DNA of 64,000 bases from Thermodesulfobacteriota bacterium (GTDB lineage Bacteria; Desulfobacterota_D; UBA1144; Nemesobacterales; Mycalebacteriaceae): positions 1 to 64,000 of the forward strand of contig CBDAQI010000011.1 of NCBI GenBank assembly GCA_965198945.1. Reading direction: 5' to 3'. The number at the start of each line of letters is the position of its first letter. The first letter of the stretch is position 1. Made by a program: the position numbers. Shown here piece by piece: positions 21,001-33,000 of this stretch.

Positions 21001-24000
21001 TTCATCAAGTCTTTTCTGTTTGTCGGTGAGGTCAAAGAAAACCTCTTATGGATTCGGCACGTTTTTTGAGATTTTCAATATCAGGTTTTTCTGCGTCTTT
21101 CATTTATGTGATACTCCTTCACGGGCCGGTTTGGATTATACACGAAAGGGTTATAGGTTGTGCTCCATCTGTTAAGTCCGGAGCATTTGCCACGCTTGCA
21201 GTATGAGCAGCGATGCAGATATAAGTATTATTGTCCCTATATCTGACCATGGAAGCCGAAGAAGATGAGCTTGCGGCTTAATCTGGTACTCCGTCAACCC
21301 ATACTTTAGCCCATTGTAATCCCGGCACACCCTGCGGGCAGGCGGATCCGGGTGGCCCCTTCTCGGCTTATACGGGATACGCCTGGCTCCAGCCTGAATT
21401 GGAATTGTCATGCGGGTCATGAGTAAACCATGCCTGATATACTGTATGAGTTGCGAAATTGATGCCAGTGGGTTCCGTCTGGCTCCAGTCGCCAAGACTG
21501 CTGGTGATCATTTTTGTTGAATGATCGTAAACAATCGCCTCGGTGGGCAGAAACGGAGCGTTGCTTTCGCCGGGGCCTTCTTCCACTGACTGAAAGATAT
21601 AAACCCTATAGGGGCCTTGAGCTCCGCGTATACTTGAAATATCTCCTATCTTTTCAACCGTAACGGCTCCGTCCGCAATCTTATCGGTTGTAATTGTGCC
21701 ATTAGCAATGTTCTCTGATGTAACACTTGCAACATCCCGCATGGTCATATTGGTATTGAGATGATAAACATCCAGCCATATCTTGTTATGGTCTACTCCG
21801 CCGGAAGACTGCGGCCAATAAGCAAGTAGTGTATAGTTTGTAGTTCGGCCGATAGCAACGGGTATTTCACCACCTGCCGAGTTTGTAAGAGACATTGTTA
21901 GTTGAGCAGCAGAGTCAAAGTTTGCACCTGCAGTTGTAGCTGGCAATGCTCTTAGCTTGGCAACGGAAATCCATTGATCGCTTTCTATTTTTCCTTCATC
22001 CCATACGCTTCCCATATCAAGAATAAGCCATCCGTCTACAGGGATTTCTATGCCGGTATTGACCGAACTGGTTCGGGGATCTAACACAGCAGACTGTCTA
22101 AATTCCCCAATTTTTGTTATAGCGCCACCCACAGCGCCGGAGATATTTCCGACAAATACCCATGAGGTGGGAGTTCTGACTCCGCTGTCGTCTGTTGCCT
22201 GCACAAAAATATCGCCACGGCGCACTGTCTGACGAGTTGTATAGGCAACGGAGTTTTCAGTAATTGTGAATCTTGTTCCAACCTCACTGCCGGACAGGGG
22301 TATGTCCCTGATAGCCAGTGCGCAGCCTACGGAATCTGTTCTTTGAAAGTCCGATGCTCTGTCAAAACAGACAACCATGCCACCCGCGGCATAATTTGGT
22401 GCGTTCAATTCCGCCGGGTTTCCTTCATTGTCAAAGCCTAGGAACTTGTTCGCCGTGCCATGGGCAAGTTGCACAAGTCCGACTGAATCGTCTGGCACCT
22501 TTGATGCCGGAATGGTAGCCGTATTGCCAGTCTCTGCCCAGTCAGCAACATTTGCCTGAATCCTGGCATCAACCTGTGACTGATTCAAAAGGTTTGAGGT
22601 ATCGGGAATCTCACTGTCCCGCGCTACACTGTCGGGGATTTTGCTGTCCGGTATTGTGTCGGTATTTCCTTCAGTCGCCCACTCGGCCGCATTGGAAGAC
22701 GAACCCTCCTTTTCCACCGGAATGCCGTTCTAGTCAAAGCCCAGAAACTTATTCGCCGTGCCGTGCGCAAGCTGTGCAAGGCCAACGGAGTCATCGGCTA
22801 TCTTGGATTGTGTTACCGCACCGTCAGCAAGTTTCGGATTTGTAACCGCACCGTCAGCGATTTTGGGTGTTGTAACCGCTCCATCGGCGATGTTAGTCTC
22901 AATAACAGCGGAGTTGGGTATTTTCCCCGTCACTATCGCTCCGGGCGCTATGTGTATGCTGCCCACAGCATTAGGGGCTATCGTTCCGGGCGTAACAGCT
23001 CCGGGGTTTATGTTAACCGACTCCACAGCATTGGGAGCTATCTTCCCCGGTGTAATAGCTCCGGGGGCTATCTGTATTGAGCCCACGGAACCGTCCACTA
23101 TATTGCCCGAAGTTACGGCATTGGGAGCCAGCTTTCCTGAAGTTACAACGCCGTCTCCGAGTTCAAGCGAACCCACGGCTCCGGCGGCTATGGTGCCCGA
23201 ATTCACCGCGTTGGGAGCCATCTTTCCAGCAGTAACGGCTCCAGGTGCAATCTGCAATTCACCCACAGTTCCCCGCGCTATGTTAGTGGAAGTTACCGCA
23301 TTGGCGCCTATCTTCTCAGAAGTAACAGCCCCATCTGCAATTTTCTGGGTTGTTACCTCTCCGTCGGCAAGGTCGGGTTTAACCTCAAAAATCTCCACCT
23401 CTATATCGTCGGTTGGAATAAAAGAAAAAAGACCTTCTCTAAAGACCCCCGGAATTTCCTTCTCTTTTGCACCCTCCCGGCACTGGTCAACGGAATTTCC
23501 CCCCTCTTTTGAATCATCGGACGCCACACCGCACCTTGCAATCCGCAACTGATGACCACCCCATTGAGCTTTTACCGCAAGTTTCGTGTCAAAATTACGC
23601 AAAACCTCTCTCGCAATATTAAACTGCCCGCATTCCAACTCCAGGTATCTGATTCCTCTTTCTCTCAGAAAGTTGGATGAAACCATACCGGCAAAAGTTT
23701 GTGTCTCTATCGGTGGGTATAGTGCTCTGGAGAAAGGATGGAACACCCTGTATTTCAATCGTGCCGTAATCATCAGCATCCTGTCTTCCGGAACCGCATA
23801 GTCTCCGCGATATTGTGGTAAGTGTCTTCCTTGGGTAATTCCACATCACCGTTAAACACACTGTTTAGTTTCCAATTTGTTCCCATAGTATTATCCTCCT
23901 ATGAATTAAATTTTGGTTATGCACTGTTATAGGGAAAAACTGTTTTTGTTGGCAACTAAAAATATGAAAAAAAGATAAAAAGCTGTGTTTAAGAGGGTTG

Positions 24001-30000: not shown

Positions 30001-33000
30001 ATTATACGGTTCCCGAAGACAGGATGCTGCTGATTACGGCGAGTTTGAACTATACGCAGTTGGGCGGCTCCGCAACGTTGGAGACGCAGAGTTTTGCGAC
30101 TATTGTTTCGTCGGACTTTCTCAGAGAAGGAGGAATCAGATATCTGGAACTGGACAGGGGGCAATTTGCTTCTTCAGACACGAATCTGCACGATTTTAAC
30201 GCAAGGTTTATGTTGAAATCGCAATGGGGCAGCCATCAGCTGCAGATTTCAAGAGAGGATAACGGGCAGTCGCCCTTTGCTCCGGTGGACAGCGCTGTTT
30301 ACTCTGAAAGCAACAGTGTGAGAGTGCGGGTTTTTGAAGTCGGTTTGGAGTTGTCCGATGATGTCGTAACTCAATCCGCAATAGCCGATGATTCGGTCGG
30401 GTTGGAACAGCTTGCGCATGGGACGGCGAACAAGTTTCTGGGCTTTGATGAGAGCGGCAACCCGGCGGAGAAAGATGCTCCATCCGATACTACTTTATGG
30501 AGAGGTGATTGGACTGCCGGCGATTACATAGTGGGGCAAATGGTTCAACATGCCGGCAACATATATTTATGTGTTTCGGCAAGAACTTCTGCAAATACAG
30601 AGAACCCTTCAGCAGATACGAACAGCTGGTCCCCTCTTTCAGGCGGAAGCTCAACAGGAGGCGGAGCGTTGACGGGCGGGAGTTACAATGCCGCAACGGG
30701 CGCTCTGACTTTTACAAGACAGGGACTTGCGGACATTCAAGTTAACATCGGAGTAATACCGACAATCAGGAGAGTGTAAAAATGGGACTGCGATTTGAAA
30801 ACTTTGGCATTGATACTTTTGATATAAGATTGCCTGACGGCTACAGCCCATCTGACGGAGACCTTGAAATACAAGGAATACAGGGCGGTAGCTCCACACA
30901 ACGCCTTAAATCCACGGACGGGAGCGGGGCAAGATACAACTGGAATGGGAATGTTTTGTCTCAGGCGTATAAATCTCTGGTTATACCCGCAAATCGCTGG
31001 AGGCGAGCCTCGGTGGGAAACTGCATAGGAGTTAGGTCAACAGCCGTAAACGATAGGAGGGTTGAAGTAACATCCGTAACAGCCCTACCCATAAAGGTAA
31101 GACATAAACAGAGCGGTTCATTGTTGGATTTTCTTCTTTGTATTGAAGATTTGAACAGACAAACCAGAATAAGTGTTGCAGTTGACAACGGCCGATATTC
31201 ACATGCCATTCGCAATGTTTCCGCCTTTACGATTCAAGGAACTGCTTACCAGTTATTAACCAATTGGAATCACGGTGATATGACCTGGAAGTATGGTGAT
31301 TTGGCAGTGAGTCAATCTAATTTTGAATTTCCCGGACAGGAAGTAATTTTGTCTTTTCCTTCCGACCAGCCGTTTGAGTTTGTTCCGTATCCGTCATGAA
31401 AAAACGGTCTGCGCCGGACTTTATCCCTCAACCAGCAGTGACTCAGGGTCTTCCACAAGTTCTTTCAGCCTGACAAGGAACTGAACGGCTTCTCTGCCGT
31501 CAACAACTCTGTGGTCGTAACTGAGAGCAACCAGCATTATCGGCCTTATTACGACCTCTCCGTCCACAACGGCCGGACGCTGCTTAATTGCGTGGAGACC
31601 CAGAATTCCGACCTGTGGCGGGTTGAGAATTGGGGTGCTCAGCATGGAACCGAAAACACCTCCGTTTGTTATGGAGAATGTCCCCCCCATAATCTCGTCT
31701 ATTTTCAATTTGCCTTCCTCGGCTTTTTCCGCAAACTGCCTGACCTCTTTTTCAAGCTCCGCGAAACTCTTTTTGTCCGCATCGCGTATAACCGGAACAA
31801 CAAGACCGCTTGAGGCGCCTATAGCCACCCCTATGTCGTAGAAATGTTTGTAGACAATTTCATCTCCCTGAATCTCCGAATTGATCTGAGGAAACGCCTT
31901 CAAAGCTCCCACCGATGCCTTGATGAAAAATGAAGACATTCCGAGTGAAACTCCGTATTTTTCCTTGAAAGAATCTTTGCGTCTCTTTCTAAGGTCCATA
32001 ACCGCGCTCATGTCCACCTCGTTGAAAGTGGAAAGAATCGCCGCTTCCCTCTGCGCTTCAAGCATGCGCCGCGCTATGGTTTTACGGCGGGCGGTCATCT
32101 TTACCCTTTCCTCTCTCCTGCTCAAAGCTGAAAGGGACGGGAAAATATCAGCCTGTTCATGAGATTTTTCTGCCGCAGCGGGCTGCTCGGTTTTGCGTGC
32201 GGCGGCTTGTTCAACATCCGCTTTTGTTATGCGCCCGCTCCGGCCTCCGGGTTCTACGGTTGACAAATCTATGTTTTCGTTGCGGGCAATGTTTTTCGCA
32301 ACCGGTGTTGAGCGTATCTCCGGCGCCGGCTGTGACGGAGAAACGGGTTTTTCCTCTCTATCCCGGGGCGGCTCGCTTTGAGGCGGCTGTTCACCGGCGG
32401 GGGCGGCCGCTTCCGCGGATTCATCTATGGCTCCAAGAGCGTCTCCGACACGCACTTCGTCTCCTTCGTTTTTACCGATCTCCGTAATCACCCCGCTTGC
32501 AGTGGCGGGCACCTCAAAATTGGCCTTTTCGGTCTCAAGTTCAACCACAGTCTCCCCGGTGCTTACGGGTTCTCCTTCCCGCTTGAGCCATTTCACCACC
32601 GTCGCTTCTATAACCGAGTCGCCCAGATCGGGCACCACTATTTCCATTGCCATTTTATCCTCCGTATTGTTTTTTGAGGGCTAAACATCAGTAGCCATCG
32701 TCACGCCGCTTTTCTGAAGTTTATCAATTTCCTTTGCGCTGAAAGCCTGCTCCATAAGTATCGCCTGATTTACTTTGTGCATTGACATTGACCCTTCAGC
32801 CGGGCTTGAATTGCGTTTTCTCGCTATGACATGCAGAGGCAGTTTTTTTGAGCGGGCGATTTTGCGCAAATAAGGGTTGAGAAACCCCCAAGCTCCCATA
32901 TTTATCGGCTCTTCCTGGAGCCACACAATTTCTTTTGCGCCTGAATAGTTTTTCACCGCAGACCCTATCTCTTCAACCGGCGGATAGTAGAGCTGCTCAA

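Follow-up and report, generated by a model that had tools for sequence, protein, structure and literature searches.

A species-restricted mosaic family of phage-fibre-like proteins, predicted to be trimeric, in a small-genome Thermodesulfobacteriota bacterium

INTRODUCTION

What purpose do dispersed genes for proteins built like phage tail fibres serve in a bacterial chromosome? The question is raised by the window analysed here, a stretch of 64,000 nucleotides of contig C11 from a Thermodesulfobacteriota bacterium. So far, the one bacterium in which a chromosomal set of phage-like fibres has been characterised is a predator, Bdellovibrio bacteriovorus, with its mosaic adhesive trimer (MAT) fibres (Caulton et al. 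2024, PMC10769870). Their design combines a conserved N-domain, a trimer and many tips, with swapping of tips.

RESULTS

Eight loci share one N-terminal domain

The survey's finding of eight paralogues with one N-domain is borne out by tblastn, profile search and alignment. The profile search of the genome gave nine matches, which correspond to eight loci, one of them split (Table 1). The domain is about 150 aa long, N-terminal, beta in character and common to all eight copies. Its conservation stands, with 26 invariant columns in the eight-sequence alignment rather than the 30 first given. The family occupies about 11.7 kb of the 1.39-Mb genome, and GC and GC3 of its genes are within about 2 sd of the genome's genes.

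Among 120 genomes of the phylum, the N-domain profile matched only the window's own genome, to which the neck described below is likewise confined; none of the five same-genus genomes was matched by the profile. A search of 1.84 billion proteins returned 12 matches to the N-domain profile and not 14, but the six copies of this genome and a 136-aa fragment are among them as reported. This fragment, 51% identical, is the sole true outside relative. Matches P0009–P0011 are spread over several stretches of very long proteins, while P0008 and P0012, which are repeat proteins, were rejected as tandem-repeat artefacts. Restriction to the species thus holds within the collections searched, bar the one fragment. 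At the regions matching three window loci (21–44 kb), three same-genus genomes have no fibre genes. The 42876 copy stands between glyoxalase and uvrC genes, which are adjacent in two same-genus genomes, and the housekeeping block at 24662–28225, which has fibre copies in opposite orientation on its two sides, runs the other way round in two same-genus genomes. Judged from the distribution of N-domain and neck and from these loci without fibre, the family is foreign to the lineage.

Table 1. Loci of the fibre family and features around the window copies (window positions are those of contig C11)
Feature	Position	Strand	Description; evidence
Family copy C4	C4:36202-37380	-	tblastn, profile search
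Family copy C5	C5:53839-55500	-	tblastn, profile search
Family copy C6	C6:119-1795	-	tblastn, profile search
Family copy C13	C13:237797-238936	+	tblastn, profile search
Window copy 825	825-1343	+	Truncated, 172 aa: N-domain and first stalk repeat, then stop; tblastn, profile search
Window copy 21368	21368-23886	-	Longest copy, broken; tblastn, profile search
Second short stalk and tip, copy 21368	21368-22375	-
Neck 2, copy 21368	22376-22549	-
Neck 1, copy 21368	22679-22861	-	Followed by spacer
In-frame TAG, copy 21368	22730-22732
N-domain, copy 21368	about 23351-23886	-	Followed by AVTxxKI stalk
+2 frameshift, copy 21368	near 23804-23806
Upstream block, copy 21368	23887-24120	-	Promoter-like hexamers, leader, AGGAGG
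REP-like hairpin	24339-24356		TTCCCG-loop-CGGGAA
Housekeeping block	24662-28225		Small ORF, aldo-keto reductase, MIP channel, Mrp-type ATPase, DUF1844
Upstream block, copy 29922	29582-29921	+	REP cluster, promoter-like block, RBS
Window copy 29922	29922-30779	+	Short, 285 aa: N-domain, neck, CBM5/12-like module; tblastn, profile search
205-aa ORF	30782-31399	+	Other frame, 2 nt after stop of copy 29922
Upstream block, copy 42876	42806-42875	+	Promoter-like block and RBS
Window copy 42876	42876-44381	+	Intact, 501 aa: N-domain, neck, weak CBM5/12-like module, orphan tip; tblastn, profile search
Terminator-like hairpin	44425-44450	-	Between copy 42876 and uvrC

Stalks, necks and tips

A stalk had been assigned to every copy, which is not the case. 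The long phage-type stalk, made of AVTxxKI repeats, is found in three copies only (C5, C6 and 21368) and the C13 copy has a short one. In the 29922, 42876 and C4 copies, the N-domain runs directly into the neck with no stalk between. The neck (consensus DDSVGLxQLAHGTANKFLGFD..GNP) is shared by six of the eight genes and doubled in two of the six, and a neck scan found none in the C13 and 825 copies; to that extent the claim of a common neck has to be narrowed. At least four unrelated types of C-terminal tip occur among the copies.

Four copies are intact and four (825, 21368, 29922 and C4) are damaged or truncated. The 825 copy has no continuation beyond its stop in any frame. The frameshift and the TAG of the 21368 copy are both present, with 0 differences, in public contigs of two samples. 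Downstream of the C4 copy lies a 74-aa orphan remnant of the 42876 tip, 98.6% identical. The 205-aa ORF behind the 29922 copy has AGGAGAG ahead of its ATG and is homologous to residues 239–408 of the 42876 tip (30% identity), which suggests that it is either a tip domain that has split off or a partner gene in its own right. Damage to half of the copies fits decay as well as a repertoire.

A conserved motif just ahead of variable C-termini has a formal resemblance to polymorphic toxins. On that view, delivery would fall to the N-part, the neck would act as the demarcation motif, and interchangeable toxins would form the C-termini; the orphan modules downstream would be represented by the fragment stranded behind the C4 copy or the small ORF right after the 29922 copy. 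We regard this as extremely unlikely. The small ORF is homologous to part of a tip and is not an immunity protein, the tips are all-beta and show hints of a lectin- or spike-like nature, and no secretion system was seen in the genome. The window copies' tips matched no toxin or immunity family in Pfam or PHROG, which is weak evidence because the tips are orphans.

Phage likeness of stalk and neck

The likeness of the stalk to phrog_892 tail fibres was reproduced, at E 1.7e-41 for the part at 22730–23815, and 17 further PHROG families match; the same scan of the window copies gave no PHROG match for 825, 29922 and 42876. Region 300–553 of the C5 copy matched 330 proteins at E ≤ 0.001, and the outside matches span only 8–30% of the query, which is the neck and stalk. 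On the viral contig L026, a 312-aa ORF has the layout N-domain, neck-like motif, tip. These similarities argue for phage ancestry of stalk and neck. Both are widespread among phage-like proteins. The N-domain is an orphan, as are two of the tip types. With the phrog_892 and phrog_28766 tail fibres and neck-bearing marine phage fibres such as the L026 protein, the family shares the AVTxxKI shaft and the neck. The order of adaptor, neck and tip is also the same, likewise with no signal peptide. However, the family lies outside any phage genome, dispersed, with one promoter-like block for each gene, and comparison of its N-domain with phage N-domains showed no relationship (hhalign probability 0.2% and 1.4%).

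The same stalk repeats open a 2344-aa YadA-type trimeric autotransporter in one same-genus genome, and YadA autotransporters of the genus are likewise trimeric fibres, used for adhesion. Unlike the family, these have a signal peptide, YadA head repeats and a C-terminal membrane anchor; where they carry the beta-barrel anchor, the family has its variable tips. A Pfam scan of six window proteins gave no YadA match. Two giant proteins with signal peptides in this genome contain stalk-like repeats as well and, judged visually from their ends, look YadA-like.

Phage fibres that assemble in the cytoplasm have this same layout of N-terminal adaptor, neck and tip with no signal peptide. The proteins might then be receptor-binding proteins of a virus-like particle (phage, tailocin or transfer agent) encoded outside the assembly, the chromosome holding a library of alternative fibres that dock on its tail via the N-domain. 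Completeness of the assembly, in 14 contigs, is 95.28%, and binning often misses phage contigs. Nevertheless, sheath, HK97 capsid, baseplate J, terminase 6N, portal and VipB, six hallmark families, were not found in the genome, in agreement with the survey's statement that no prophage is present; no phage or injection-machine hallmark gene was found. A search for a T7-type portal carries no information, as its control matched nowhere either. The N-domain was absent from IMG/VR contigs in a pattern scan and from phage-like proteins among the 1.84 billion representatives, and the 42876 and 21368 tips had no match in 50,697 phage records. The eight genes are dispersed, each with its own promoter-like block, among housekeeping genes with no phage or tailocin structural module around, which is unlike any phage module. 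We therefore consider such a particle unlikely.

Structure models and hints of binding

The trimer prediction was reproduced. The three-copy model of the protein from the 29922 copy scored 0.60 against 0.00 for the best of three controls (0.61 against 0.00 before), with runs agreeing in at least 50% of contacts and a partner pLDDT of at least 58. The confident interface is at residues about 140–187, in the neck. The score mark is reached by 21 of 30 proteins solved as one-chain pairs and by none of 23 solved as single chains, a calibration made with two copies and not three; phage-fibre trimers are already among solved structures, so the pass may partly reflect likeness to them. The model predicts that the family proteins trimerise.

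The N-domain model is all-beta and of low confidence (pLDDT 53.5), and its best fold match, at Z 7.8, is at background level for that search. The C5 tip model is also of low confidence (pLDDT 52.8); its top six fold matches, at Z 7.1–8.3, are all to the C-terminal domains of phage fibre and spike proteins, and those ranked lower are at Z 6.3 or less. A CBM5/12-like module is seen in both the 29922 copy (22.1 bits, E 1.6e-4) and the 42876 copy (14.6 bits, E 0.034). Since both scores are below the Pfam gathering cut-off of 26.2 bits, this is a resemblance only. Together with the fold matches of the C5 tip, it hints weakly that the tips may be binders.

Upstream blocks and the search for export signals

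A common promoter-like/RBS block had been reported upstream of most copies and is in fact found in all eight: TTGCCA or TTGGTC, 18 nt, TATAAC or TATAAT, then AGGAGG and ATG. The -10 element ends in C in five copies, and a consensus promoter scan of two copies did not call the shared block. The blocks of the 29922 and C4 copies are 100% identical across 340 bp. S8-like genes adjoin two of the eight copies; the description of these neighbours as S8 autotransporters holds for the S8 likeness and not for the autotransporter domain, which Pfam did not detect in them at E ≤ 0.01.

None of the eight copies has a signal peptide; all start at the N-domain directly after AGGAGG-ATG. In-frame sequence upstream consists of stops or non-hydrophobic residues, with no signal-peptide extension, and no copy has a lipobox or membrane anchor. 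No export system or docking partner for the family was identified in the genome. The survey's reading as a recombining repertoire of trimeric, phage-fibre-like proteins is upheld by the three-copy model and the mosaicism described below; its qualification as 'surface or adhesive' is not.

A cytoplasmic location, strong-looking expression signals on every copy and restriction to one species could also be explained, on indirect grounds, by an anti-phage decoy, in which the N-domain of cytoplasmic fibres would compete with an infecting phage's own fibres for their socket and leave the progeny with useless tips. We know of no precedent for such a decoy. No phage with this N-domain was found in IMG/VR or among the 1.84 billion proteins, and diversified, selected tips would be pointless in a pure decoy, which makes it very unlikely.

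Recombination and selection

Mosaic identity between the copies was confirmed at the protein and DNA level, and a formal test of recombination was positive. The 42876 copy switches parents sharply at about nt +320, with the breakpoint near 43190. Its 256 informative sites divide 109:16 on the left of the breakpoint and 0:131 on the right (Fisher 1.8e-55, with no correction for scanning for the breakpoint). Over codons 1–365 not a single base differs between the C5 and C6 copies, and their tips are diverged after codon 365 with a dS of 0.86. In all nine informative comparisons, including those between subtypes with dS above 1, dN/dS is 0.26–0.40, indicating long purifying selection. Mosaicism, purifying selection and restriction to this genome are properties of the family as observed.

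These values bear on the possibility of a cassette of phage origin that, after spreading, is in decay and of no current use to the host, its dispersal and mosaicism due to REP-rich flanks and recombination between copies. The genome has 33 strict REP hairpins; nine of them are found within 700 bp of a family locus, at six of the eight loci, where about 0.5 would be expected from length alone. Such decay would also fit the four damaged copies, the two breaks of the 21368 copy shared by both samples and the absence of the family from all five same-genus genomes. Purifying selection, four intact copies and a start context kept in all eight argue the other way, and some 11.7 kb of useless DNA would be unexpected in so small a genome. 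We find decay rather doubtful.

DISCUSSION

Our preferred reading, held tentatively and short of probable, is that of lineage-specific homotrimeric binding fibres of phage ancestry that are owned by the host, adhesive, and work like the MAT fibres of Bdellovibrio. Eight separate single-gene units in the core chromosome would each be driven from their own copy of one promoter-like/RBS block, and the protein would be made with no Sec signal. The neck, together with AVTxxKI repeats where present, would nucleate the trimer. We infer that the N-domain may dock every member onto one common partner, that the C-terminal tips may do the binding, and that either a non-Sec route or release may bring the fibres to the outside. 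The repertoire would be altered by gene conversion and homologous recombination among the copies, with the conserved 5' part and the neck as joints, and the same recombination would leave broken copies and stranded tip fragments. A rather unlikely reading is that of a host fibre repertoire assembled in the cytoplasm with no Sec signal and mounted via a docking domain of a new kind on a partner other than a phage tail, either an envelope structure reached by an export route or vesicles.

Compared by design, the closest analogue of the family is the MAT fibres. Both have many chromosomal paralogues (21 in Bdellovibrio, 8 here) and a conserved beta-rich N-domain of about 130–150 aa for which no structural homologue is known. 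Both also combine a shaft of phage type, trimeric here by prediction, with C-terminal tips that are unrelated to one another, and for both, swapping of tips is proposed (PMC10769870). In contrast, MAT fibres carry a signal peptide that all eight copies here lack, and they were shown on the cell surface (PMC10769870). The S74 chaperone domain was not found in Pfam and PHROG scans of the window proteins. Homology to the MAT N-domain is not detectable, as judged indirectly from a profile search that returned one outside fragment only. The MAT host is a predator, while the host here is a small-genome planktonic bacterium not known as one.

Gene-conversion repertoires that vary the cell surface, of the Neisseria pilE/pilS type, are a second point of comparison. 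Such a system has partly homologous copies, mosaic products and broken copies as possible donors, all of which are shared by the fibre family. Unlike there, every copy here, broken ones included, keeps its promoter-like block and start, and there is no single expression site.

Under purifying selection and with demonstrable swapping of tips and N-domains, about 11.7 kb of a 1.39-Mb genome is spent on this family. Whichever reading holds, the N-domain and tips, as orphans, offer new folds for structure determination, and the family shows recombination at conserved joints in a clean natural case. If the fibres serve or sabotage phage, they would represent a new kind of host-phage interplay. If they are displayed, they would reveal by what means a streamlined marine bacterium changes its adhesion targets, and a route of export or docking that needs no signal peptide would be indicated. 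Were fibres mounted by a non-Sec route, a genome-streamlined planktonic bacterium would have several exchangeable binding specificities, and the MAT idea would have evolved a second time, independently, in a non-predator and with a different way to the surface.

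Architecture of the fibre copies

Eight N-domain loci are found in the genome by tblastn with three of these common N-terminal beta domains (~150 aa) as queries. The assembly comprises 1,387,051 bases in 14 contigs, with an estimated completeness of 95.28%; contig C11 holds the window. The family of at least eight copies that the survey had described is borne out. A profile of the aligned N-domains recovers the same loci and none besides. The alignment of the eight proteins has 26 invariant columns across the ~150-aa N-terminal region. Ordinary housekeeping genes surround the copies, among them aspS, fmt, the NAD kinase gene, prfB, sucA/sucB, era and uvrC. 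The prfB frame at 20002-20880 (-) covers the PCRF domain only from position 52, while the open frames of relatives have 347-367 aa; a programmed +1 frameshift, as is usual for release factor 2, probably explains this. Two adjacent genes at 35652-36125 and 36141-36629 (-) each encode a protein of ~160 aa with a sub-threshold zinc-ribbon match.

A single architecture had been ascribed to all copies. The N-domain is indeed common to them, but shaft, neck and tips are less uniform than claimed. A shaft of ~190-200 aa with AVTxxKI-type repeats occurs in the C5, C6 and 21368-23886 copies (Table); it matches tail-fibre family phrog_892 with an E-value of 1.7e-41, and 17 other PHROG families match as well. 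The shaft of the C13 copy is short, and in the 29922, 42876 and C4 copies the N-domain is directly joined to the neck. A neck profile detects eight necks in six genes, the C13 and 825 copies having none. The tips fall into at least four unrelated types.

One upstream design recurs in all eight copies: TTGCCA/TTGGTC, 18 nt, TATAAC/TATAAT, a leader, AGGAGG and ATG. A consensus promoter scan of two copies did not call this block because the second hexamer ends in C in five copies, and we therefore describe it as promoter-like rather than as a shown promoter. Since the block is retained throughout, a silent-cassette model with a single expression site and promoterless donors was rejected. A signal peptide is missing from all eight, as is any in-frame extension that might provide one.

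Table. Coordinates of the fibre copies and of their lesions and fragments. Positions without a contig name are in the window.
Feature	Position	Strand	Remark
825 copy	825..1343	+	ends after 172 aa; no continuation in any frame
21368-23886 copy	21368..23886	-	
Frameshift in 21368-23886 copy	near 23804-23806	-	two extra bases relative to the two closest paralogues
TAG in 21368-23886 copy	22730-22732	-	in frame, within neck
29922 copy	29922..30779	+	ends after CBM5/12-like module
205-aa ORF	30782..31399	+	two bases past the end of the 29922 copy; other frame, own AGGAGAG
42876 copy	42876..44381	+	
C4 copy	C4:36202-37380	-	
Stranded 74-aa fragment			downstream of C4 copy; 98.6% identical to C-terminus of 42876 copy
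C5 copy	C5:53839-55500	-	
C6 copy	C6:119-1795	-	
C13 copy	C13:237797-238936	+	

Damage, selection and recombination

Half of the copies are damaged (825, 21368-23886, C4 and 29922). The 205-aa ORF behind the 29922 copy shares homology with residues 239-408 of the 42876 tip. Public contigs from one study were compared with 20500-32000. Both the TAG and the frameshift of the 21368-23886 copy stand in contigs with zero differences, and a further sample from this study has the frameshift as well; the check is not fully independent because the runs may include the source sample. Such lesions could mark the family as decaying cassettes. Values of dN/dS stay at 0.26-0.40 throughout the nine informative comparisons, those between N-domain subtypes with dS above 1 among them, so the proteins were kept working over long divergence. 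We regard decay as a rather doubtful account of the family.

Recombination among the copies, also proposed by the survey, is supported. Between the promoter block and ~nt +320, in an alignment that spans -120 to +640, identity of the 42876 copy is 83-100% with the 21368 copy and 72-100% with the C13 copy. Beyond this point identity to that pair drops to ~26-59%, and through the neck it is 98-100% to the C4 and 29922 copies. Of the 256 informative sites, those left of the breakpoint divide 109:16 for and against the first parent, and those right of it 0:131 (Fisher 1.8e-55, without correction for the breakpoint scan). At their separate loci, the C5 and C6 copies share every base of codons 1-365; past codon 365 dS is 0.86 and protein identity 55%.

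Gene order and repeats around the copies

The genes for glyoxalase and UvrC are adjacent in the same-genus genomes G025 and G027, and in the window the 42876 copy separates them. In G025 and G028 prfB adjoins DUF1844. The housekeeping block at 24662-28225, from DUF1844 to a small ORF at 24662, is inverted relative to these two genomes and is bounded by the oppositely oriented 21368-23886 and 29922-30779 copies; G027 has yet another gene order at the junctions. In this genus the region is therefore prone to rearrangement, which the fibres need not have caused. Contigs assembled from four runs of a single study (the source sample may be among them) break at the repeats, and their joints are all in REP/repeat blocks or come from paralogues at ~85% identity; broken in this way, they show no alternative orientation of the 24.6-28.2 kb block. 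Directly upstream of the 29922 copy, a gene at 28311-29432 (+) encodes a 374-aa protein that carries a signal peptide and ends in phenylalanine, likely an outer-membrane barrel. Pfam gives no match for it, and it is not among the genes seen in the syntenic regions of three relatives.

The REP-like hairpins consist of TTCCCG, a loop and CGGGAA, often with GTCA before and TCCAG after, and GTCATTCCC direct repeats lie alongside. In the window they occur at 24339, 29674 and 62035-63049. They are few in the genome, with 33 strict copies, and are concentrated beside certain genes: nine are within 700 bp of six fibre loci, and others lie next to three S8-like lipoprotein genes and a giant adhesin gene. 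A gene at 6414-7256 (-) encodes a 280-aa protein with a partial match to IS200-like Y1 transposases (E 3.8e-8); no strict hairpin is near it. This, and the lack of any strict hairpin within 700 bp at two of the eight fibre loci, speaks against a REP-bounded transposon model.

The survey had placed S8 autotransporter genes beside several copies. S8-like genes do adjoin two of the eight, but their Pfam match to S8 is weak and Pfam gives no autotransporter domain. They are the only recurring neighbours, at two loci, and a recurring neighbour as docking partner was rejected on this ground. Three paralogous lipoprotein genes have the weak subtilase match (C4:37706-39589, C10:39963-41864 and C13:239225-241251, the last split into two ORFs); the C-terminal halves are 92-95% identical. 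A 170-bp stretch downstream of each is 100% identical among the three and belongs to the block that precedes the C4 and 29922 fibre copies.

Another reading takes the copies as fibres for a particle that is missing from the assembly. Sheath, HK97 capsid, baseplate J, terminase 6N, portal and T6SS VipB are absent from the genome in searches with positive controls; a T7-portal search is uninformative, its control being silent. We consider this reading unlikely.

Relatives outside the genome

Among 120 genomes of the phylum, the N-domain and neck profiles each match one, the window's own; neither profile matches any of five same-genus genomes. Against 5.8 billion clustered proteins, the 42876 N-domain gives four matches, all from this genome (candidates of 275-877 aa). 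The profile, run exhaustively against 1.84 billion representatives, gives 12 matches, of which six are from this genome and one is a 136-aa fragment encoded on a 2196-bp contig. The fragment shares 51% identity with the C5 N-domain and likewise begins at the N-terminus of its protein. The other five are long proteins with 4 to 16 matched stretches each, and both of the two inspected are tandem-repeat artefacts. Scans of metagenome contigs with the profile and with the fragment gave no match, the ESM Atlas gave no usable match to the N-domain, and a pattern scan of IMG/VR did not find it. One IMG/VR contig has a 312-aa ORF in which a neck-like motif joins an N-terminal domain to a tip; the adjoining ORF is fibre-like, as judged by eye only. 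Four members have no PDB sequence match below E 0.0039, and a literature search on Dadabacteria tail fibres found nothing related.

Residues 300-553 of the C5 copy match 330 proteins, of which the outside ones span only 8-30% of the query, namely neck and stalk. Several of these have Pfam DUF5907 and a few have S74, T7-tail or YadA-head families; many are encoded on contigs of ~35-45 kb. Shaft and neck are most likely phage-fibre parts acquired from outside the phylum. That the fibres would serve as an anti-phage decoy seems highly improbable to us. The 42876 tip matches only itself, the C5 tip only its C6 paralogue, and the 42876 and 21368 tips have no match among 50,697 phage records. By these sequence searches the N-domain and the tips appear to be without known relatives, the tips being orphans.

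Structure models and a possible function

Three copies of the 285-aa protein (29922 copy) are predicted to associate with a score of 0.60, compared with 0.00 for the best of three controls. In calibration, 21 of 30 proteins known as pairs of one chain attained the mark for this score, and none of 23 known as single chains did. The calibration had two copies rather than three, and likeness to solved phage fibres may partly account for the pass. Contact agreement between runs is at least 50%, partner pLDDT is at least 58, and the confident contacts are at residues ~140-187, the neck. The AlphaFold2 model of the N-domain has a pLDDT of 53.5. Its best PDB matches are generic beta-sandwiches, namely a GOLD domain (Z 7.8), the lambda tail tip protein (Z 7.6) and the C-domain of the Bd2133 fibre (Z 7.2); they do not rise above the background level of the search, and no fold was assigned. 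A BFVD search gave TM-scores of 0.49 or less. For the C5 tip model (pLDDT 52.8), phage fibres and spikes provide, with their C-terminal domains, the six top matches (Z 7.1-8.3). Together with a sub-threshold CBM5/12 match, this model gives weak hints that the tips may be binders. A polymorphic-toxin-like system is extremely improbable in our judgement, and a small share of the probability falls to none of the readings considered.

A 2344-aa YadA-type trimeric autotransporter of same-genus G026 (contig L021 1823-8854), with 25 YadA head stretches, uses the same AVTxxKI shaft repeats as the fibre family. In this genome, two giant signal-peptide proteins (C10:6321-14561 and C12:139210-144788) contain such phage-type repeats as well; their ends look YadA-like by eye, and one is apparently split.

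In the mosaic adhesive trimer (MAT) fibres of Bdellovibrio bacteriovorus, which are surface-displayed, a signal peptide precedes a conserved beta domain of ~130 aa (PMC10769870). The present family combines a constant N-terminal domain with a neck predicted to trimerise and tips that can be exchanged, and both multi-fibre phages and MAT fibres are built in this way. MAT fibres have a signal peptide, whereas these eight copies do not, and this is the main objection to reading the family as host-owned adhesive fibres. Because of the design shared with MAT fibres and multi-fibre phages, the YadA-type shaft repeats of the genus and the weak hints of tip binding, our preferred, though tentative, reading is nevertheless that the fibres belong to the host as adhesives and work like MATs.
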